A stretch of 64,000 bases of DNA from Bacteroidetes bacterium GWB2_32_14 (GCA_001768235.1 MENK01000031.1:7294-71293); one strand, 5' to 3'; counted from the stretch's first letter, positions 3,746 through 53,045 are shown. Notes: generated by a model not told the origin, from the letters alone. Numbers and translations: made by a program.

Positions 3746-4627
3746 TTAATCAACAAAGACATTCAGTCCTTTAGGAATAATTTTTATTCTTAGTTCTTCG
3801 CCCATTTCACCGGGTTCGCCATCGAAATGAATAACATCGGGTTGTTTTCGGCGAATGGTAAGTTCTTCGCAACTGAACGTTTCGAGATACTGGCTTTTAT
3901 CTATATTTTTAAGAAACAACCGGGCACCCATAACCGGGGCATTAATAATTGGGAAAGCACGCATAATGGCAACTTCCATTTTACCATCGTTTACATCAGC
4001 TTTGGGAGCAATATGAGCATTGTTCCCATATTGAGATGCGTTGGCACAGGTAATAAGAAAAGCATCTCGAAAAAGTGTTTTTTCTTTAGTTGCTATCTCG
4101 TAACGTTGTGGCTCATATTTAACAAACTCTGAAAAGGATGCCTTAATGTAATTTGCAAAACCACGTCCTTCGGTTTTTGAAAAAACATGTCCGACATGGG
4201 CATCGAAACCAACACCTGTTGTACAAAAGAATAAACGGTCATTTATTTTGCCATAATCCATTTTTAAAATATTCCTTTTAAAAATAAGATTCAGGGCCTT
4301 TCTCGGATTCATGGGGATTTTCAGGTGCCTGGCTAGACCATTGCCCGAGCCAACAGGAATTATTCCTAAAACAGCATCGGTATCTACAATAGCACTTGCC
4401 ACTTCGTTTACTGTGCCATCGCCACCAACAGCAATAAAAATCTTAAATCCTTTGGTGTAATAATCTCTAACCCTGCTTGTTGCATCACCCGGAAAGCGTG
4501 TTTCAATTATTTCAAAATCGATTTGTCGGGCATTGAGCTTTTTCTCAATAAGCCCGGATAATGAACCTTTGTTTTTTTTACCTGAAACCGGGTTAACAAC
4601 AAATAAAAACTTTTCTTTCATCGCCAC
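3746..4627 (-). CDS. Diacylglycerol/lipid kinase, DagK/YegS family
   Basis: VNPVSG, AVGGDGTVNEV, GIIPVGSGNGLARHL, NASQYG and HFDGE motifs. The ATG at 4621 is an alternative start. Confidence 0.9.
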   Translation of the reverse strand: MAMKEKFLFVVNPVSGKKNKGSLSGLIEKKLNARQIDFEIIETRFPGDATSRVRDYYTKGFKIFIAVGGDGTVNEVASAIVDTDAVLGIIPVGSGNGLARHLKIPMNPRKALNLIFKRNILKMDYGKINDRLFFCTTGVGFDAHVGHVFSKTEGRGFANYIKASFSEFVKYEPQRYEIATKEKTLFRDAFLITCANASQYGNNAHIAPKADVNDGKMEVAIMRAFPIINAPVMGARLFLKNIDKSQYLETFSCEELTIRRKQPDVIHFDGEPGEMGEELRIKIIPKGLNVFVD

Positions 4628-4654
4628 TTACCTCTAATCCATTATAAAACTTTG

Positions 4655-4662
4655 CAAAAGTA
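4655..4662 (-). promoter_or_regulatory. Bacteroidota sigma-A -7 element (TACTTTTG) for the lipid kinase gene
   Basis: Matches TAnnTTTG about 28 bp upstream of the start codon. Confidence 0.6.
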
Positions 4663-4821
4663 CTTATTATCAATAACATTTTAAAATTATATACCGAAAT
4701 GTTTGGGAAGCTATTTATAATTCATTTAATATATTCTTAACAATCAATAAGATTTAGTAATTCCTTAAACCATATTTAACAATCTGTTTAGAATCAGTTT
4801 ATTTCTTTGAAATAAAAACAC

Positions 4822-5649
4822 ATGTTAAAACAAAATCACTACAAAACCATAATTATTTCTGATGTACATTTAGGGACTAACACGTCGAAGGCCAAAGAAT
4901 TAGTCCGTTTTTTAAAAACAAATACCTGCGATAAACTCATTTTAAACGGAGATATAATAGATGGCTGGAGATTGAAAAAATCGGGAAAATGGAAAAAAAA
5001 ACATACTCGTTTTTTTAAAGTTCTTGTAAAAATGATGGGTGAATTTAACACAGAGGTAATATATATAAGAGGAAACCACGATGACTTCCTGGATAATATG
5101 ATGCCTTTTACTATTGGAAACCTTTCAATACGCAAAGATTATATCCATAAAAGTTTTGGGAAAAACTATTATGTTGTTCATGGAGATATTTTCGATAACA
5201 TAACTACAAACCTCCGCTGGTTAGCAAAGTTAGGCGATATCGGATATACTTTCCTTTTGTGGATGAATAAAGTATATAATAACCGACGGGTAAAACGGGG
5301 ATTGCCTTACTACTCATTGTCTCAAGAGATAAAACAACGAGTTAAAACAGCTGTATCATATATCTCAAGTTTTGAGCAGGAGCTTGTGAATCTTGCTAAG
5401 CAGAAGAATTGTCAGGGGGTAATATGCGGTCATATTCATCATCCGGATATCAGGGAATATGGGAATATAACATATTATAATTCGGGCGACTGGATAGAGT
5501 CGTTGACTGCGCTTGTAGAACATTATAATGGCAATTGGGAAATATTATACTACAACAATTTGATTAAAGAAGAAATTACCCCTTTATCGAACCAATTAAA
5601 AAATATTGAATTTGTTATACCAAAATTACCACAAATAAAGCTCGCTTAA
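4822..5649 (+). CDS. Calcineurin-like metallophosphoesterase, PlcP-like phospholipase C / LpxH-like (usually auto-annotated UDP-2,3-diacylglucosamine diphosphatase)
   Basis: SDVHLG, GDIIDGW, GNHDD, HGDIFD, WLAKLGD..Y, YYSLS, GVICGHIH and NSGDWIES motifs. The WLA.LGD.Y / Y.SLS..K..VK.AV segment is as I recall for the PlcP subfamily. Confidence 0.8.
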   Translation: MLKQNHYKTIIISDVHLGTNTSKAKELVRFLKTNTCDKLILNGDIIDGWRLKKSGKWKKKHTRFFKVLVKMMGEFNTEVIYIRGNHDDFLDNMMPFTIGNLSIRKDYIHKSFGKNYYVVHGDIFDNITTNLRWLAKLGDIGYTFLLWMNKVYNNRRVKRGLPYYSLSQEIKQRVKTAVSYISSFEQELVNLAKQKNCQGVICGHIHHPDIREYGNITYYNSGDWIESLTALVEHYNGNWEILYYNNLIKEEITPLSNQLKNIEFVIPKLPQIKLA

Positions 5650-6828
5650 ATGAAATATCTTTTTATAGTTCAGGGAGAAGGCAGAGGCCATTTAACCCAG
5701 GCTATAAGTTTAAAAAACATTTTAATAAAAAACGGCCATGAAATTACAAAAGTCATTGTTGGTAAGAGCACTCACGGGGAAATACCCGGGTTTTTCACTG
5801 AAAAGATTAAATCGGGTATTGTTCGTGTTGAAAGCCCAAGTTTCGTTACAGACAAAAAAAATATACGCATCCGAATTACAAGAACAATATTCTACAATTT
5901 ATTCCATTCACGAAGGTTTCTCAATAGTTTAAAAACAATTAAACGAATTGTTGATAACGAGAAACCCGATATTATTGTCAATTTTTATGACACTTTAGGT
6001 GGTTTGTTTTACCTTGCATATAAAGTAGAAATTCCATTTTATTGCATAGGTCATCAGTATTTAATTTTTCACCCGGAGTTTTCTTTTCCTGAAAATCATT
6101 TCTTAGATAAATTCCTTTTTAAATTTCACGCAAGACTAACTTCAATTAATGCAACTAAACGTTTGGCATTATCTTTTAGATCAATGACCGACAATTTTGA
6201 TAAAAAAGGAGTTGTTGTTCCTCCATTACTTAGAAAAGAAGTGTTCGACAAAAATATTATAACTGAAGATTTCATACATGGCTATACCTTAAACGATGGT
6301 TATGCAAATGAAATAATAGAATGGCATAAAAACAAAACGAATATAAAAATACATTTCTTTTGGGATAAAAAGGATGCAATGGATGAAACAACTTATCATA
6401 ATAACTTAATCTTCCATAAAATTGATGATGAAAAGTTCCTCGACTACATGAGCCGTTGTTCTGGATATGCAAGTACAGCAGGTTTTGAATCTATTTGTGA
6501 AGCCATGTATATGGGTAAACCCGTAATGATGATTCCAACCGCCGGGCATTTTGAGCAAACGTGTAATGCTTTAGACGCATCTTTTTCCGGTGCAGGAATT
6601 GTATCTGAATCTTTCGATTTATCAAGATTTATTGAATATATCCCTCTACACAATCAGAATTATTCTGAATTCAGAAACTGGGTTAAAAATGCAGAAGTTT
6701 TTTTTATTTATCATCTTGTTCATAGTGTGAATAATTATTCAATTAAAAAATTTGAAAAATTCACCTTTGCAATAAATAAAAAGGTATTCAGAAAAAGTAC
6801 AATACTAAGAACGCAAAGTTTTCGTTAA
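5650..6828 (+). CDS. GT-B glycosyltransferase, GT28-related (MJ1255/VC2487-type)
   Basis: N-terminal QGEGRGHL, C-terminal TAGFESICEAMYMGKP..IP..GHFEQ..NA. The start directly abuts the phosphoesterase stop. Confidence 0.8.
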   Translation: MKYLFIVQGEGRGHLTQAISLKNILIKNGHEITKVIVGKSTHGEIPGFFTEKIKSGIVRVESPSFVTDKKNIRIRITRTIFYNLFHSRRFLNSLKTIKRIVDNEKPDIIVNFYDTLGGLFYLAYKVEIPFYCIGHQYLIFHPEFSFPENHFLDKFLFKFHARLTSINATKRLALSFRSMTDNFDKKGVVVPPLLRKEVFDKNIITEDFIHGYTLNDGYANEIIEWHKNKTNIKIHFFWDKKDAMDETTYHNNLIFHKIDDEKFLDYMSRCSGYASTAGFESICEAMYMGKPVMMIPTAGHFEQTCNALDASFSGAGIVSESFDLSRFIEYIPLHNQNYSEFRNWVKNAEVFFIYHLVHSVNNYSIKKFEKFTFAINKKVFRKSTILRTQSFR

Positions 6829-6879
6829 AATATTCGAGTTCAAATAAGAAGTACATTAAAATTCTTGGTTCATAATTTG

Positions 6880-6887
6880 TATTTTTG
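6880..6887 (+). promoter_or_regulatory. -7 promoter element (TATTTTTG) of porQ
   Basis: TAnnTTTG ending 4 nt before the ATG at 6892. Confidence 0.55.
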
Positions 6888-6891
6888 CCTG

Positions 6892-7962
6892 ATGATTCGA
6901 AAATTCAATTTATTCTTCATATTTCTATTCCTGTTTACCAAGATATTTTCGCAAACAGGAGGAACATCAACCTATTCATTTCTTGAACTTACAAACTCTG
7001 CCCGGGTAGCGGCAATGGGTGGAAACTTAAACTCTGTAAACGACAACGACTTAAACCTTACTTATCATAACCCGGCATTGCTGACAGCAGAAATGGATCA
7101 AACACTCGTGCTGAACTACGTGAACTACTTTGCCGGCATAAATTACGGGTATGTTTCGTATGCAAGAAATATAAAGAACTTTGGTGTTTTTGCCGGGGGA
7201 ATTCAATACATAAATTACGGTAAGTTTATTGAAGCCGACGACAAGGGAATTGTTACCGGGGAGTTTAATGCTTCTGAGTTTGCTTTAAGCTTAACTTACT
7301 CGCACCCGATAAATGAATTGTTTACAGTTGGAGCAACAATAAAACCTGTTATTTCCACACTCGAAAATTATACATCACTTGGTATTTCCGCTGATTTTGG
7401 AGCTTTATATAACAGTCCCGAGAAATTGTTCTCGGCTGCACTGGTTGTAAAAAACCTCGGAACACAGTTGAAATCATATACAAGCGAAACCGACAACTTG
7501 CCCCTGAATGTTCAGATAGGTATTTCACAAAAGTTAAAACATGCCCCTCTCCGATTTTCGATTATTGCCGATCATCTTGAAAAACCTGATTTATCATATA
7601 CAATTGAAAACAATGATTCAGACCTCGACCTGCTGACAGGTGAAGAAACATCAGAATCGGCCATTGATAAAATTGCCGATGGAGTTATGCGCCATATTAT
7701 TATCGGCTTGGAATTCATGCCCGTTGAAAACCTGTATCTTCGGGCCGGGTATAATTACAGAAGGCGGCAGGAAATGATTATAGAAACCCGAACGGCCATG
7801 TCAGGATTCTCGTGGGGTTTTGGGCTTAAAATCTCAAAATTCCATATCAACTACGGGCGGGCAACATACCACCTTGCAGGAGCTTCGGATCATATCTCTA
7901 TAAGCACAAATCTTGAAAGCTTCTATAAACGTCATGAATCAATATCATCTTCCGAATATTAA
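6892..7962 (+). CDS. porQ: Type IX secretion system outer-membrane protein PorQ
   Basis: FLEL..SAR.AAMGG, NPALL, YINYG.F, GYNYRRRQE and HLAG motifs. Conserved position upstream of cmk. The ATG at 6892 is preferred over the TTG at 6865. Confidence 0.8.
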   Translation: MIRKFNLFFIFLFLFTKIFSQTGGTSTYSFLELTNSARVAAMGGNLNSVNDNDLNLTYHNPALLTAEMDQTLVLNYVNYFAGINYGYVSYARNIKNFGVFAGGIQYINYGKFIEADDKGIVTGEFNASEFALSLTYSHPINELFTVGATIKPVISTLENYTSLGISADFGALYNSPEKLFSAALVVKNLGTQLKSYTSETDNLPLNVQIGISQKLKHAPLRFSIIADHLEKPDLSYTIENNDSDLDLLTGEETSESAIDKIADGVMRHIIIGLEFMPVENLYLRAGYNYRRRQEMIIETRTAMSGFSWGFGLKISKFHINYGRATYHLAGASDHISISTNLESFYKRHESISSSEY

Positions 7963-10386: not shown

Positions 10387-11148
10387 TTAATTAAATGCTC
10401 CTTTTAAATATTCTTTAGTCAGCTCTTCCTTAGGATTTTCAAAAAAGTCTTTTGCCGGGCCATGTTCAATAACTTCGCCCATGTACATAAAAATTACATA
10501 ATCGGCAATTCGCCTGGCCTGTCTTAAAATATGAGTAACAACTACAATTGTATAGCGTTGTTTTAGTTTAACAAAAAGTTCTTCGATTTGTTTGCTTGAT
10601 AATGGATCTAATGCCGAAGTAGGTTCGTCAGCCAGGATAATTTCAGGATCAACAGCTAATCCGCGTGCGAGGCATAATCTTTGTTGTTGTCCAATAGATA
10701 ATGATGATGCAGAATCTTTTAACCTGTCTTTTACTTCGTCCCACAAACTAACCTGCGTTAAATAATGTTCGACACGTTTTATCAGGTATTTCTTTTTTCT
10801 CCGCCCGCTGATTCTCAATCCGTAAGCTATATTATCATAAATACTCATGGGTAAAGGATAAGGACTCTGCGAAAGAAGTCCCATTTTTTTTCTAAGCAGG
10901 GTTATTTCGGTTTTGGAATGCAAAATATCTTCTTCATTTAAAAAGATACTTCCATCAATTTTCATTTCGGGATAAAGATCTGTTAACCTGTTCAGGCTCT
11001 TCAATAATGTCGTTTTTCCACAGCCTGATGGCCCGAGTATCACTGTCAGTTGCCTTTCGGGAATACTTACATGAATATTCTTTAAAATATGGTTTTTACC
11101 TATATGCAGGTTCAGATTATCAATCTTTATTTTAGATTCATTTCCCAT
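10387..11148 (-). CDS. pstB: Phosphate ABC transporter ATP-binding protein
   Basis: GPSGCGKTT, LSIGQQQRLCLARGLA, DEPTSALDP and VTH..RQARR motifs; last gene of the pst operon. Confidence 0.93.
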   Translation of the reverse strand: MGNESKIKIDNLNLHIGKNHILKNIHVSIPERQLTVILGPSGCGKTTLLKSLNRLTDLYPEMKIDGSIFLNEEDILHSKTEITLLRKKMGLLSQSPYPLPMSIYDNIAYGLRISGRRKKKYLIKRVEHYLTQVSLWDEVKDRLKDSASSLSIGQQQRLCLARGLAVDPEIILADEPTSALDPLSSKQIEELFVKLKQRYTIVVVTHILRQARRIADYVIFMYMGEVIEHGPAKDFFENPKEELTKEYLKGAFN

Positions 11149-11155
11149 AATATTT

Positions 11156-12016
11156 TTATTTAATTCTTTCCTGATAATACTTTCGCGATAAAATCCTCGA
11201 TATTATACTGATAATTAAAATAATAACAGTAAGTACGACCGCTGAAGCATACGCCCTGTTTTGAACTTCAGGTATTGGCGACCCTAATTGGAAGAAAATT
11301 GATAATGGCAATGTAGCTGTTGGTTGTGATAACGATGTCGGGATATAATCGGTATAACCTGTTGTAAACAAGATAGCTGCCGCATCACCAATAGCCCTGC
11401 CAAAAGCGAGCAAAATAGCAGTTATTATTCCCGGAATACATTGCCTGCTCAATACTTTATATGAAGTTTCTGACCGGGTTGATCCTAATGACAGAGCAGC
11501 CTCAATCAAGCCTTTCGGGACAGTTTTAAAAACCTCGTCCATTGAACGTACCATAATTGGAATAATAAACAAGGTAACTGTTATTATCCCTGCAAGCAAA
11601 GATGCACGTAATCCAAAATAAATCATAATTGTAAATCCAAATGCTCCGTAAACAATGGATGGAACTCCCCATAATAAATCGAGCAAAAAACGGACGGTAT
11701 TTACCAATCGTTTTTGTTTTGCCCTGTGAATATTAATATACACTGCCAAAGGCAAACTTATAATAAACGAGAGTATGGTAGCTCCAAAAGATAAATAGAG
11801 AGATCCGATAATTGCATTCAGAATTCCTCCTTCTTTGCCGAAATAATACCCTCCTTTGGGAACCTGAGTTAACATTTGCCAGTTTAAAGAAGGAAGCCCT
11901 TTATATAAAATGCTAACAATGATTAAAAGTAATGCAATGGCAATTATGCTGGTTGCCAGGAACATTAAAACCCTGTAAACGCCTACTTCGGTATTTTTCC
12001 AGAACTTCCTGCCCAT
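11156..12016 (-). CDS. pstA: Phosphate ABC transporter permease PstA
   Basis: GGILNAIIGS, GVPSIVYG, EAALSLGS and GRAIGDAA motifs; operon position. Confidence 0.9.
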   Translation of the reverse strand: MGRKFWKNTEVGVYRVLMFLATSIIAIALLLIIVSILYKGLPSLNWQMLTQVPKGGYYFGKEGGILNAIIGSLYLSFGATILSFIISLPLAVYINIHRAKQKRLVNTVRFLLDLLWGVPSIVYGAFGFTIMIYFGLRASLLAGIITVTLFIIPIMVRSMDEVFKTVPKGLIEAALSLGSTRSETSYKVLSRQCIPGIITAILLAFGRAIGDAAAILFTTGYTDYIPTSLSQPTATLPLSIFFQLGSPIPEVQNRAYASAVVLTVIILIISIISRILSRKYYQERIK

Positions 12017-12018
12017 CG

Positions 12019-12930
12019 TTATATCTTTTTTTCGGAATAAATAATCAAATACCTTGATCCCATATTGAATATTGTGACAACCACGAACAATATGAGAGCG
12101 GAAAACATTAAAGCAGAATCATACATTGGTATTGAAAGCATTTCGCCATAGTTATTGGCAATTAACGCGGGTAATGGATACCCGGGTTGAAAAACTCCGG
12201 TAGGAATTTTAACCACATTCCCTACCACCATTAACACGGCAATTGTTTCACCAAAAGCTCTTGAGATACCCAATCCAAAAGATGAAATGATTCCGGGAAA
12301 CGCTTTTTTTAAAACAACATATTTTATAGTCTCCCATTTTGTAGCACCCAAAGATAAAGAAGCTTCTGAAAGTTCGCGGGGAACAGTTCTGATAACTTCG
12401 ATAAGGATATTTAATACAAAGGGAATAATCATTATTGAAAGGACAATTGCCCCGGTTAGTATTGTATATCCTGAATTTGGATGTCCCATTGAAGCACCCA
12501 TGCGGGAAACAAAAGGAACTACAAGCAGGATTCCCCAAACACCATATATTACTGAAGGAATTCCAGCCAGAATATCAATTACAGGATGCATTAATTTCAG
12601 CACCCATTTTTTAGCATAATGTGTTAAATGAATAGCCGATAACAAGCAAACCGGCCCACATATAAGCATTGATAAAATGGTAACCCATAATGAACTTACA
12701 ATAAATGGCCAGAATCCGAATTCTCCTTTTAGAGGGTGCCAATTACCAGAGAAAAGAAGTTGCAGAAGAGATTGCTCCCTGATTAATACGTTTGATTTAT
12801 AAAGCAACCCAAATCCAAGAATAAATGGCAAAACCAAAATCAATAAAAAACATATAAACATCCATGAGGAATGAAACTGATCTTTAATTTTTCTACCGAT
12901 CCTAAAAATTTTTATAAAAAAATCTCTCAT
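12019..12930 (-). CDS. pstC: Phosphate ABC transporter permease PstC
   Basis: WHP..GEFG, LAGIPSVIYG, EASLSLGATKWE and RAFGETIAV motifs. Confidence 0.92.
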   Translation of the reverse strand: MRDFFIKIFRIGRKIKDQFHSSWMFICFLLILVLPFILGFGLLYKSNVLIREQSLLQLLFSGNWHPLKGEFGFWPFIVSSLWVTILSMLICGPVCLLSAIHLTHYAKKWVLKLMHPVIDILAGIPSVIYGVWGILLVVPFVSRMGASMGHPNSGYTILTGAIVLSIMIIPFVLNILIEVIRTVPRELSEASLSLGATKWETIKYVVLKKAFPGIISSFGLGISRAFGETIAVLMVVGNVVKIPTGVFQPGYPLPALIANNYGEMLSIPMYDSALMFSALILFVVVTIFNMGSRYLIIYSEKKI

Positions 12931-12950
12931 TACCTGATGCTCAATGCAAA

Positions 12951-13946
12951 TTATTGTTTTTCAAGATCGTTAAGCCCGTATTGAAGTTTTTCATCGGAAA
13001 TTTGAACATAGCCGGCTTCATGAACAAATTTCTGCCCTTCGGTTACAATCCATTTTAAAAATTCAATTACAACTATATTTTGGGGTTTTCCTTTTGCAAC
13101 AAAATAGAGATCGCGTGCCGGGGGAGAAGGATATTTGCCATTTTTAACAGCAACCATAATATCATCGAGTTTATTGTAAACCTGTTCATCTACATCAATT
13201 TGTCCATTTTCATTTAAATCGATAGGTATAATCTCGAGTTCCGGGTTTTTATCACGTGTTTTAATATCGTATGCATAAATTACATTATTAAACCCGATAC
13301 CTTTCACATCATTTTTAACAGCTTCGGCAATACCCGGGTCTCCGAATATACCAGTTCCCAAGAGGTCTTCCTGGCTTTTACCTAAATACTCGGCCCACAT
13401 TTGAGCAGCTCCGCAAGCATCGGAACGGGTATAAATGTTCATCGCATAATCGTTCGTTTTTACTCCGGAAGCCCATTTCTCCCATGTTTTAATTTTGCCG
13501 TTTATGAAAATGTCAATAAAATCCTGTTTTTTAAATCCTTGTTTTTTAACATTTTCTATAAATATTGAGTTTGAATTAATTGTCGGCAAAACGGCATCCT
13601 GTGTAACAGCTATCCACCATACGCCTTTCGCTTTTTCTTCATCAGTAATTCCCCTTGAAAACATACCTAAATCAACCATTCCTGATAATGCATCGGTCAT
13701 TCCTTTGCCTGCACCTCCGGCAGATATATCGATTCGAACATCGGGGTGTATCTTTTGAAATTCTTCGGCCCATCTGGCTGTCATAGGATATAAAGCAAAG
13801 GCTCCCGATATACTGATTGTACCTTTAAGAGCTCCTGTTTCGTCAGGATTACTGTATTGTTTATTTTGATTTCCATTGCATGCCGATATTAAAATAAGCA
13901 AGCCTGACATGAAGAAACCAATCAAAGCTTTTTGTATATGTTTCAT
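12951..13946 (-). CDS. pstS: Phosphate-binding lipoprotein PstS
   Basis: Lipobox ISAC, ISGAFALYP, GGAGKG, RSDACGA and PPARDLY; first gene of the pst operon. Confidence 0.88.
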   Translation of the reverse strand: MKHIQKALIGFFMSGLLILISACNGNQNKQYSNPDETGALKGTISISGAFALYPMTARWAEEFQKIHPDVRIDISAGGAGKGMTDALSGMVDLGMFSRGITDEEKAKGVWWIAVTQDAVLPTINSNSIFIENVKKQGFKKQDFIDIFINGKIKTWEKWASGVKTNDYAMNIYTRSDACGAAQMWAEYLGKSQEDLLGTGIFGDPGIAEAVKNDVKGIGFNNVIYAYDIKTRDKNPELEIIPIDLNENGQIDVDEQVYNKLDDIMVAVKNGKYPSPPARDLYFVAKGKPQNIVVIEFLKWIVTEGQKFVHEAGYVQISDEKLQYGLNDLEKQ

Positions 13947-14110: not shown

Positions 14111-15997
14111 TTAATCTGCCGAAGGAACGGTAAACGAAAATATAGAACCTTCACCCGGTTTGCTTTCAGCCCAAATAGAACCTCCCATTCTCGTGACAAA
14201 CTCCTGGCAAAGAGTTAATCCTAACCCGGAACCTCTTTCGTTATTTGTTCCCGTTGTTGTAAAAAATGAATCCTTTCGGAATATTTTTTCTAATATTTCT
14301 TTATTGAATCCTATCCCGGTATCTTCAATATCTACTTTTATAAACCCATTTTTTTTATGAACACCAATATTTACATATCCTCCTACGGGTGTGAATTTTA
14401 TTGCATTCGAAACTAAATTTCGAACAACCAGTGTTATCATGTTTTTATCGGCCAACGCGTTAAACTCATCAATAATTGTTGAATTAATATGTATCTCTTT
14501 TGAGTCGGCAACACCTTTAAATATTAGAAGATTTCGTTCGATAATCAGGTTGACATTTAGTTTCTCGGGAACATAGACTACTTCCCCTCCTTGATTTTGA
14601 GCCCAGAATAAAAGATTTTCCATTAAATCATTTATTGATTGTACTGACTTCATAAAGATGTTAAATGTATTTACCAGGCTTTTATTTTTACTAATTTCTT
14701 CTTCTGATAGTAATATTTCTATTAAGGATATTAAACTCCCCACGGGCCCGCGTAAATCGTGCCCGATTATTAAAAACATTTTATCTTTTGTATGATTCAG
14801 TTTATTTAATTCTTCTTTTTGTTGTTCAAGAATAATATTTTGTCTTTTCCTGTGTCTGTAAGAATAAATAAAGTAGATAAGTATTCCTGAAATCAGAAGA
14901 AGAATAACAGCAAGGGTAAAAGTTAATATCCTGGTTCTGGTAAGAATAAGTTTGTTTATTTGCTTGTCTTTATTAAGCAAGTCTATTTCGGCTTGTTTTT
15001 TTTCTTTTTCGAAACGATATTCCAGGTTGAAAATTTTTTCGGAGAGCTGCTGGTTGAAGAGGGTATCATTATACTTAATAATACAAGTCTTCGATTGTGC
15101 AGCATCTTTGAATCTTCCTGTTTGAAAGTAAACCTGCGAAAGAATATCAAATGCATCGCGAATAACCAGTTTTGCCCCGATGTTTTTCGCAATTTCCAAT
15201 GCATGATTGGCATTTTCTTCGGCTAAAGAGTAATTTCCTGAAATTAAATAAGTAGCAGCAATTTTTACATACAGGTTCGATGTTAAATCTTGATCCGATT
15301 GTTTATCAACTGTTTTTAGAGATTCTTTATATTTATTCAGAGCTGCCGGGAAATTATTCTTGTCGAAATAAACATCTCCCATGTATTTATAACATACGGC
15401 TAAACCTGATATTTGTTTTATTTCTTCGCGTAAGCTCAATGCTTTTTCAAAGTTTATCAGTGCATTGTCATAATCTTTTTTAAGCATTTGTGCTCTGCCT
15501 AAATTTAACAATACATAAGCTTTAATCCTTTTATTATCTGTTTTTTCGGCAATATCAAGTGCTTTGTAAAGATTCTCCATCGCGCTATTATAATACTCCT
15601 GATAAATATGAAGATTTCCAATATTAATATAAGCGTACCCTTCCTGATCTATAACATGATATTTCTTTGCTAATTCTAATCCTTTGTAAAAATAATCGGT
15701 TGATTCGGAATAATTTCCCAATATACGGTAAGCAACACCCACAAAACTGTGAGCTTTAACAAGGCTCTCGAAATCATTATATTTTTGCGCGTACTCAATT
15801 GCCTGCATTCCATACTTAATTGATTTCTCTGGTGCTGAGTTACGTAACTCCCAGCTAATCTCGCTTAATATATTTGCTTTTAATGAATCCGGCAACAATT
15901 CTAATTTTCTTAACAAACTATCTGCTTGCAGCTGATTATTTGCAAAATTTAAAATCGGGAAAAAGATAAAGGATAAAACGAATATTGTTTTTTTCAT
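14111..15997 (-). CDS. TPR-repeat membrane sensor histidine kinase (orphan)
   Basis: Signal peptide, about 7 TPR-like repeats, one TM helix, H-box IIGHDLRGP, N box NLVSNAIKFT, G boxes DTGIG and GSGLGL..C.EFV, GEGSIFSFT. Confidence 0.92.
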   Translation of the reverse strand: MKKTIFVLSFIFFPILNFANNQLQADSLLRKLELLPDSLKANILSEISWELRNSAPEKSIKYGMQAIEYAQKYNDFESLVKAHSFVGVAYRILGNYSESTDYFYKGLELAKKYHVIDQEGYAYINIGNLHIYQEYYNSAMENLYKALDIAEKTDNKRIKAYVLLNLGRAQMLKKDYDNALINFEKALSLREEIKQISGLAVCYKYMGDVYFDKNNFPAALNKYKESLKTVDKQSDQDLTSNLYVKIAATYLISGNYSLAEENANHALEIAKNIGAKLVIRDAFDILSQVYFQTGRFKDAAQSKTCIIKYNDTLFNQQLSEKIFNLEYRFEKEKKQAEIDLLNKDKQINKLILTRTRILTFTLAVILLLISGILIYFIYSYRHRKRQNIILEQQKEELNKLNHTKDKMFLIIGHDLRGPVGSLISLIEILLSEEEISKNKSLVNTFNIFMKSVQSINDLMENLLFWAQNQGGEVVYVPEKLNVNLIIERNLLIFKGVADSKEIHINSTIIDEFNALADKNMITLVVRNLVSNAIKFTPVGGYVNIGVHKKNGFIKVDIEDTGIGFNKEILEKIFRKDSFFTTTGTNNERGSGLGLTLCQEFVTRMGGSIWAESKPGEGSIFSFTVPSAD

Positions 15998-18068: not shown

Positions 18069-18222
18069 TTTATTTAATGGCAACTTTCTATTTTAGTTGA
18101 TGATGTTTTTTAAATGGTTTTAATAAAAATAAATTTTAACAAAATTTAACCTGAAACGTTTTAATGAATCATAAATAGAATAACATTTTTTCTATCTTTA
18201 CTTTTTAAAAAATCTAAACTTT

Positions 18223-53025: not shown

Positions 53026-53045
53026 ATGTTAAAATCATGTTAAAA
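53026..53045 (+). promoter_or_regulatory. Tandem direct repeat ATGTTAAAA x2 at 11-bp period, possible regulator site
   Basis: Copies at 53026-53034 and 53037-53045, 35-55 bp upstream of the -7 box at 53080-53087. Confidence 0.3.

Follow-up and report, generated by a model that had tools for sequence, protein, structure and literature searches.

The DNA considered here (the window) is a stretch of 64,000 nucleotides from Bacteroidetes bacterium GWB2_32_14 (GCA_001768235.1 MENK01000031.1:7294-71293), a Bacteroidota assembly of 3.66 Mb in 36 contigs, and our subject is a group of three genes in its first part that are predicted to act on lipids. On the minus strand, positions 3746-4627 (counted from the first letter of the window) encode a soluble lipid kinase of the YegS/BmrU/DgkB type (293 amino acids; DAGK_cat and YegS_C domains, TIGR00147). 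Diverging from it across a 194-bp spacer, the plus strand carries plcP (4822-5649), encoding a metallophosphoesterase of the PlcP type and predicted phospholipase C (275 amino acids; Metallophos domain), followed by a gene for a glycosyltransferase (GT) of the GT-B fold (5650-6828; 392 amino acids; PF13528/TIGR00661). The TAA stop of the phosphoesterase gene (5647-5649) abuts the ATG of the GT gene at 5650. Two features of the spacer are of interest for control of these genes: on the plus strand at 4765-4780, the direct repeat TTAAACCATATTTAAC with an 11-bp period, a candidate operator and possible Pho box, and on the minus strand at 4655-4662, the sequence TACTTTTG, read directly as a TAnnTTTG -7 promoter box of the kinase gene. 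A preliminary description of this DNA had proposed that the three genes together form a reversible switch between phospholipid and glycolipid. The layout on which it was built, with three open reading frames at these coordinates, a divergent kinase and an abutting stop and start, was confirmed in the sequence; the functional proposal fared less uniformly.

Judged by sequence comparison, the phosphoesterase is of the PlcP type and not an LpxH, because it is far closer to known PlcPs, because a phylogenetic tree places it with them, and because it bears motifs that only they possess. Specifically, the window protein is 39% identical to Sinorhizobium meliloti SMc00171 (E 2e-62), 43% identical to the product of Pseudomonas aeruginosa plcP, which has agt as its neighbour, and 43% identical to a Sphingomonas PlcP taken from a plcP-GT pair (E-values against the three references, 2e-62 to 2e-69), compared with 27% identity to the LpxH-type protein of its own genome and 19% to Escherichia coli LpxH (E 6e-6). 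The named PlcP references were obtained by tblastn of plasmid records (PLSDB); the S. meliloti reference lies beside sinR and sinI, which we take to be the position of SMc00171, and immediately after the P. aeruginosa plcP comes a gene for a “family 1” glycosyltransferase of the GT4 kind, as in PA3219/PA3218. As an aside, the PLSDB “plasmid” records L007 (CP090106.1), L009 (NZ_OY725790.1) and L008 (NZ_CP137508.1) look like mis-filed chromosomal DNA: such records include a 3.7-Mb S. meliloti entry titled pSymB that carries sinI and sinR, a Parabacteroides distasonis “plasmid 45” with genes for EF-G, hemW and glutamine synthetase, and a P. aeruginosa set in which the plcP-agt pair sits amid neighbours of a chromosomal type.

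The tree, built by maximum likelihood from 46 sequences that included SMc00171, the P. aeruginosa plcP product and E. coli LpxH, splits the PlcP and LpxH groups with 100/99 support; the LpxH group consists of E. coli LpxH and 12 LpxH-type proteins from Bacteroidota, and the window protein falls on the PlcP side. Within the PlcP side there are three subclades, one of Bacteroidales (100/99) that holds the window protein and the P. distasonis gene, a second that holds the characterised PlcPs, and a third made up of other Bacteroidota. Alignment with both kinds of reference shows that the metal ligands D14, H16, D44, N85, H120, H204 and H206 are invariant throughout, and that the window protein has the signatures peculiar to PlcPs (GDIxDGWxLK, HGDxFD...RWLAxLGD, PYxSLS, GVxCGHIHH and GDWxES.TAL). 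Its scores on the LpxH models are far below their cut-offs (28.4 bits on TIGR01854, cut-off 190.35; 42.5 bits on NF003743, cut-off 134).

That the phosphoesterase does not serve lipid A synthesis is suggested by two further observations, since the genome contains a better LpxH candidate elsewhere and since the two families are distributed very differently. The other candidate, at C19:93101-93766, scores 72.6 and 91.5 bits on the LpxH models. Of 301 Bacteroidota genomes, sampled evenly, 292 (97%) have a gene of the LpxH type and 109 to 116 have one of the PlcP type (36-39%; 109 at strong E-values, the set used as PlcP-positive below, and 116 at E<=1e-20). Close homologues of the window protein belong to uncultured Bacteroidales, and all named homologues, in a large protein collection and in PLSDB alike, are labelled “UDP-2,3-diacylglucosamine diphosphatase/LpxH”. 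The earlier suspicion that automated pipelines would file such a protein under lipid A biosynthesis was therefore correct, as every named homologue bears the LpxH name, and its preference for a PlcP over a true LpxH is likewise borne out; for the separate lpxH that it proposed to look for, the genome has a candidate.

The glycosyltransferase is less easily placed. It matches PF13528 (Glyco_trans_1_3) with 103 bits over residues 1-325 (cut-off 25) and TIGR00661 (MJ1255/VC2487) with 105 bits, below the cut-off of 196; the C-terminal domain of GT28 enzymes (Glyco_tran_28_C, PF04101) is recognised at 21.6 bits, just below the cut-off of 22, the Pfam search gave no match to the GT28 N-terminal domain, and the murG model is matched at E 6e-4. 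The AlphaFold2 model is confident (pLDDT 90.9, pTM 0.88), and its top 50 Foldseek hits were GT1-type enzymes throughout, as were the hits of a profile search of the PDB; the best PDB matches of the model were the kitacinnamycin glycosyltransferase, CalG2, UGT109A1/YjiC and plant UGTs, which act on lipophilic acceptors, and neither MurG nor MGD1 was among the top matches of either search. The protein retains an invariant N-terminal G-x-G-x-G-H loop and a C-terminal E..GKP..P..EQ..NA motif, and we read both as features shared by GT1 and GT28, the second, the nucleotide-sugar motif, resembling that of MurG. The preliminary description had called the enzyme GT28-type, which is loosely right in that kinship exists at the level of the superfamily; membership of GT28 proper is rejected, since the PF04101 score falls short of its threshold and the structures most like the model belong to GT1, and the closest family is PF13528/TIGR00661. 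Because those nearest structures are GT1 enzymes, the modelled fold suggests that the mechanism is probably inverting.

What recommends this enzyme as the partner of PlcP is the constancy of the pairing. In 53 of the 109 PlcP-bearing genomes, plcP is followed directly and in the same orientation by a homologue of the GT (E<=1e-10), at gaps of 4-547 bp, and this is also so at 17 of 20 diverse loci (E<=1e-5) fetched from different Bacteroidota families; the pair is present in P. distasonis as well. At those loci the homologues fall into two subtypes, with 35-48% and 21-25% identity to the window GT by BLASTP, and PF13528 is matched both by the window GT and by all five copies of the distant subtype that were checked against Pfam. 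Thus the proposal that PlcP is here coupled to something other than the GT4 enzyme Agt stands, the partner being a PF13528 protein that is conserved beside plcP and co-directional with it. The GT is predicted to glycosylate the lipid backbone that PlcP releases. A literature search found no characterised enzyme of the PF13528, TIGR00661, VC2487 or MJ1255 kind, and nothing relevant on the glycolipids of Bacteroidota under phosphate limitation.

In the preliminary description the kinase served as the built-in reverse arm of the switch, and it is here that the evidence departs from it most clearly. The kinase scores 136 bits on TIGR00147 (YegS/Rv2252/BmrU), above the cut-off of 118.65, and is far below every equivalog cut-off, including those of YegS and of the NCBI “diacylglycerol kinase” models; its start is probably the ATG at 4621 and not the GTG at 4627, because its relatives are 291-292 amino acids long. 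We looked for a second diacylglycerol kinase of the DgkA type (PF01219), which could have freed the YegS-type enzyme for a dedicated role, and found none in the genome; the YegS-type gene is itself single-copy and is therefore the only candidate for a diacylglycerol kinase that the genome has. Across the sample of 301 genomes, homologues occur in 232 (77%) with no detectable preference for the company of PlcP: 88 of 109 PlcP-positive genomes have one, as against 144 of 192 PlcP-negative genomes (odds ratio 1.4, p = 0.32), and the 21 PlcP-positive genomes that lack it include the nearest sampled family. At none of the 20 diverse loci does it lie within 6 kb of plcP, nor is it adjacent to plcP in P. 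distasonis.

The picture in the closest relatives of the window is different. In this near clade (metagenomic relatives whose PlcPs are 65-80% identical to that of the window; six lineages, eight loci), the order of a divergent kinase followed by plcP, GT and porQ is kept in five of the six lineages, L016 being one in which the kinase is not adjacent. The genes beyond the kinase vary, with a DUF3570 operon in the window and EamA-CxxCxxCC or dnaE-CxxCxxCC in the relatives. This adjacency is weak evidence of shared function, because porQ, cmk and ispH are just as syntenic. The distribution, the adjacency and the co-occurrence test led us to reject the kinase as an obligate member of the module; most likely it is a general lipid kinase that is a neighbour of the module rather than a fixed part of it.

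The region between the kinase gene and plcP is consistent with such an arrangement. The repeat TTAAACCATATTTAAC (TTAAA-N6-TTAAC) lies 57 nt before the ATG of plcP, and a related pattern, TTAA(A/x)-N6-(T/A/C)TAA(A/C), is found 55-59 nt before the ATG in six of seven upstream regions of the close clade (the window and six relatives), the rest of the spacer having diverged in the regions that bear it. Scanning the region upstream of plcP in P. distasonis did not reveal the pattern. A weaker second repeat is present at 4726-4741, closer to the kinase. Elsewhere in the same genome, at two loci of contig C24 (L054 and L064; repeats at C24:190988-191053 and C24:194226-194252), two copies of TTAAC-N6-TTAAC precede the gene of the best PhoB-like response regulator (C24:191129-191821), which with 212 bits on a Bacteroidetes PhoB model is the highest-scoring in the genome though below the cut-off, and three tandem 11-bp TTAAC repeats precede a gene on the same contig for a PHO4-family phosphate transporter of 753 amino acids. 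Pairs of half-sites in intergenic DNA favour spacings of N5 and N6, with 16 and 18 hits, versus 2-9 at other spacings; this enrichment at helical spacings supports the existence of a real direct-repeat operator. We therefore regard the TTAAC repeats, on sequence grounds, as a candidate Pho box of the Bacteroidales, unlike the CTGTCAT consensus of the proteobacteria; the published Pho-box search matrix was built from the boxes of Sinorhizobium and E. coli. Control of plcP and the GT gene by phosphate is what these patterns would imply.

Genes for TonB-dependent receptors, for two other two-component systems and for an S41 peptidase also have single TTAAC repeats nearby. Those at C1:290473-290680, C18:18800-18937 and C35:72784-74559 are near genes for a lamin-tail protein secreted by the type IX secretion system, a TonB-dependent receptor and an S41 peptidase; the repeat is upstream of the genes for the lamin-tail protein (1391 amino acids) and the receptor, and beside that for the peptidase in the opposite orientation. 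Proteins with lamin-tail, TonB-dependent receptor and S41 peptidase domains are phosphate-induced in Flavobacterium johnsoniae (PMC8115612). The window itself has two more intergenic repeats of the form TTAAC-N5/6-TTAAC, at 53028-53043 (C31:60321) and 18136-18150 (C31:25429).

The kinase gene appears to have signals of its own. The box TACTTTTG precedes the kinase start by about 30-40 nt, with about 100 nt separating it from the repeat proximal to plcP, and it follows TAnnTTTG, which we take to be the -7 promoter consensus of the Bacteroidota. Two promoters placed back to back account for the sequence better than a single control region common to both genes would, and the suggestion that a single divergent promoter governs both directions of lipid conversion is therefore not upheld, given a separate box so far from the operator next to plcP.

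Taken together, these observations make it likely, in our judgement, that plcP and the GT gene are the PlcP lipid-renovation module as it occurs in Bacteroidota and that the kinase is most probably a general enzyme under its own promoter. In this scheme 4822-5649 and 5650-6828 would be a two-gene operon, probably induced under phosphate starvation by way of a direct-repeat operator, and this operator would overlap the promoter of plcP at its -33 region. PlcP would be a cytoplasmic, metal-dependent phospholipase C that strips the phospho-head group from glycerophospholipids to leave diacylglycerol, and the GT would use a nucleotide sugar to glycosylate the diacylglycerol backbone, yielding a glycolipid free of phosphorus. 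The kinase would carry out housekeeping recycling of diacylglycerol or a related lipid, its place beside plcP being a peculiarity of this lineage, where it may in addition remove surplus diacylglycerol in the manner proposed for Burkholderia dagK. The gene identities, the clade membership, the separate LpxH candidate, the pairing of PlcP with the GT and the lack of conserved linkage to the kinase or to the pst genes are direct observations; the substrates, the product, the inverting mechanism and the phosphate control of the module are what we infer from them.

Several points weigh against this account. In Dokdonia MED134, a carrier of the same pair of genes, the reported rise under phosphate starvation was in aminolipids only, and no glycolipid was reported (PMC4796936). 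The Bacteroidales subclade of the window PlcP is apart from the subclade that contains all of the characterised PlcPs. The candidate Pho box is weakly defined, there being just a half-site upstream of pstS and single matches near unrelated genes for diaminopimelate (DAP) epimerase, RecQ and a beta-lactamase-fold protein, so that as a clean predictor of Pho boxes the TTAAC repeat was only partly successful. Lastly, the junction between the kinase and plcP has been kept in five of six near-clade lineages despite rearrangements on the far side of the kinase, and some functional coupling within this lineage is conceivable.

This last point also speaks for the idea that kinase, PlcP and GT make up one co-regulated switch, in which a shared divergent control region drives both conversion to glycolipid and its reversal. 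That idea gains from the weaker repeat at 4726-4741, nearer the kinase, and from the independent plcP-agt-dagK operon of Burkholderia, published with just such a logic. We nonetheless consider it unlikely, given that the kinase is absent from the vicinity of plcP at all 20 diverse loci and is not adjacent in P. distasonis or L016, that presence of the two genes is not associated across genomes (p = 0.32, with 21 PlcP-positive genomes lacking the kinase), that the sole diacylglycerol-kinase candidate of a genome would be expected to have a general role, that the kinase has a -7 box of its own about 100 nt from the operator, and that near-clade synteny extends to porQ, cmk and ispH just as well. 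Comparably doubtful, to our minds, is the more adventurous proposal that the PF13528/TIGR00661 enzymes are an unrecognised class of inverting, GT1/GT28-like lipid glycosyltransferase, making beta-glycosyl-diacylglycerol or, in Bacteroidales that have sphingolipids, glycosylceramide, with the kinase recruited beside the plcP promoter in the lineage of the window as a safety valve for diacylglycerol or ceramide; the recruited kinase would then be a convergent counterpart of Burkholderia dagK, and the product would have escaped published lipidomics, in which no glycolipid was reported for Dokdonia MED134 although plcP was induced.

The remaining alternatives concern the chemistry of the pair. PlcP might free ceramide from ceramide-phosphoethanolamine or ceramide-phosphoinositol, the GT would then make glycosylceramide, and the kinase would be a ceramide kinase. 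Both of those sphingolipids are typical of Bacteroidales, the DAGK_cat kinases include ceramide and sphingosine kinases, the window PlcP is in a Bacteroidales-specific subclade (100/99) apart from the characterised PlcPs, no glycosyl-diacylglycerol has been reported in Bacteroidetes that bear the pair, and the nearest structures to the GT glycosylate varied lipophilic acceptors. Yet the pairing of PlcP with a PF13528 GT spans Bacteroidota families, the protein is about 40% identical to PlcPs that cleave glycerophospholipids and has all signature motifs in common with them, and domain searches of the neighbouring genes revealed no sphingolipid gene adjoining the pair; these points make a sphingolipid pathway quite improbable. 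Still less probable is a branch of the lipid A pathway, or of a glucosamine-lipid pathway, in which a pyrophosphatase like LpxH would be followed by a GT-B transferase like LpxB. The succession of an LpxH and a GT-B enzyme does mirror that of LpxH and LpxB, databases name the family UDP-2,3-diacylglucosamine diphosphatase, and the protein weakly resembles LpxH models and structures (E ~1e-4). Against it stand the low scores on the LpxH models, the distinct LpxH-type gene in the genome, with orthologues in 97% of the phylum against 36-39% for the PlcP type, and the clustering of the protein with experimentally characterised PlcPs, of which the Sinorhizobium and Pseudomonas members are proven phospholipases according to the papers cited for them.

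Phosphate transport genes also occur in the window, and the preliminary description had attached meaning to their proximity. The genes pstB, pstA, pstC and pstS (10387-13946, minus strand) begin 3.56 kb past the GT stop, and between the two lie porQ (type IX secretion; 6865-7962, directly after the GT gene; 393 bits on NF033711), cmk, ispH and marC. In the near clade porQ adjoins the GT gene in all six lineages (eight loci), even in L017, where cmk and ispH have been replaced; these two follow in five of the six, and where they do, ispH is followed by priA or a phosphofructokinase gene (priA in L010, L012 and L013). No pst gene was found in any of the near-clade flanks fetched, which extend 8 kb to either side of plcP in L010, L012 and L013 and less at the other loci. 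With the pst genes convergent, four unrelated genes intervening and the proximity not conserved in the near clade, we reject a functional link to pstSCAB. Immediately upstream of pstS, also on the minus strand, is a gene for a sensor histidine kinase of 628 amino acids (14111-15997), which we rejected as PhoR, its score on the PhoR model being far below the cut-off. The best match of this protein is the FimS model of Porphyromonas (258 bits, below the cut-off), and no obvious response regulator adjoins its gene.

The broader consequence concerns annotation. A whole gene family of the Bacteroidota carries the LpxH or lipid A label when its place is in the clade of the PlcP phospholipases C, and this mislabelling has consequences for metabolic reconstruction and for inventories of phosphorus-stress genes in Bacteroidota from the gut, wastewater and the sea. 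If the TTAAC-N6-TTAAC operator were confirmed as a PhoB site, it could become a tool for predicting Pho regulons in the Bacteroidota.

It is instructive to set the locus beside the systems already described, as neither the gene pair nor the notion of a reversible switch is new. Sebastián et al. classified the neighbourhoods of plcP in 2016 and listed in Table S2 about 40 Bacteroidetes in which an “Uncharacterised glycosyltransferase” gene adjoins it, with Dokdonia MED134, Polaribacter MED152 and Cytophaga hutchinsonii among the examples (type 3/5 contexts), and plcP is induced by phosphate starvation in Dokdonia MED134 (PMC4796936). In F. johnsoniae, Lidbury et al. (2020) assigned to “lipid remodelling” both Fjoh_4577 (PlcP) and Fjoh_0541 (a pf04101 glycosyltransferase in the phoBR operon), each strongly induced on phosphate depletion (PMC8115612). 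Burkholderia cenocepacia has a plcP-agt-dagK operon (BCAL2364-2366), described in a 2023 preprint and a 2026 paper in JBC, that is conserved across the pathogenic clades surveyed; all three proteins are phosphate-induced, and in the working model DagK recycles excess diacylglycerol (PMC13691135). Given the Bacteroidetes listing and the Burkholderia model, the concept of a reversible switch had already been published; what the present locus adds is a lipid-remodelling pair of the PlcP type, mislabelled in databases, from a lineage not noted for it before.

The likeness to the PlcP-Agt pathway (S. meliloti SMc00171, Phaeobacter MED193, SAR11 HTCC7211, P. aeruginosa PA3219/PA3218) is that of a phosphoesterase from the same clade, a glycosyltransferase gene immediately downstream, and the same predicted logic by which phospholipid would pass to diacylglycerol and on to glycolipid under phosphate stress. 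The differences are that the partner in the window is a PF13528/TIGR00661 enzyme, GT1/GT28-like and probably inverting, whereas Agt is a retaining GT4 enzyme, and that the window PlcP is in a separate Bacteroidales subclade. The pairs noted by Sebastián and by Lidbury come from the same phylum and have the same two-gene architecture, although the window copy is from a lineage of Bacteroidales that has not been cultured and its neighbour is a divergently transcribed lipid kinase gene; on the strength of the phylum-wide survey, the window GT is presumed to correspond to those of Dokdonia and Polaribacter and to Fjoh_0541. With LpxH the phosphoesterase shares the calcineurin-like metallophosphoesterase superfamily and the same metal-ligand motifs, but its family is patchy in distribution, coexists with a true LpxH-type gene and forms a separate clade. 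The kinase for its part has the DAGK_cat and YegS_C architecture of DgkB, YegS and BmrU. Like Burkholderia, then, the window has genes for a PlcP, a glycosyltransferase and a putative diacylglycerol kinase side by side; in contrast to the three co-directional genes of Burkholderia, the window has a divergent kinase with its own promoter box and a glycosyltransferase of another family, and its kinase, the sole diacylglycerol-kinase candidate of the genome, is linked to plcP in the near clade only.

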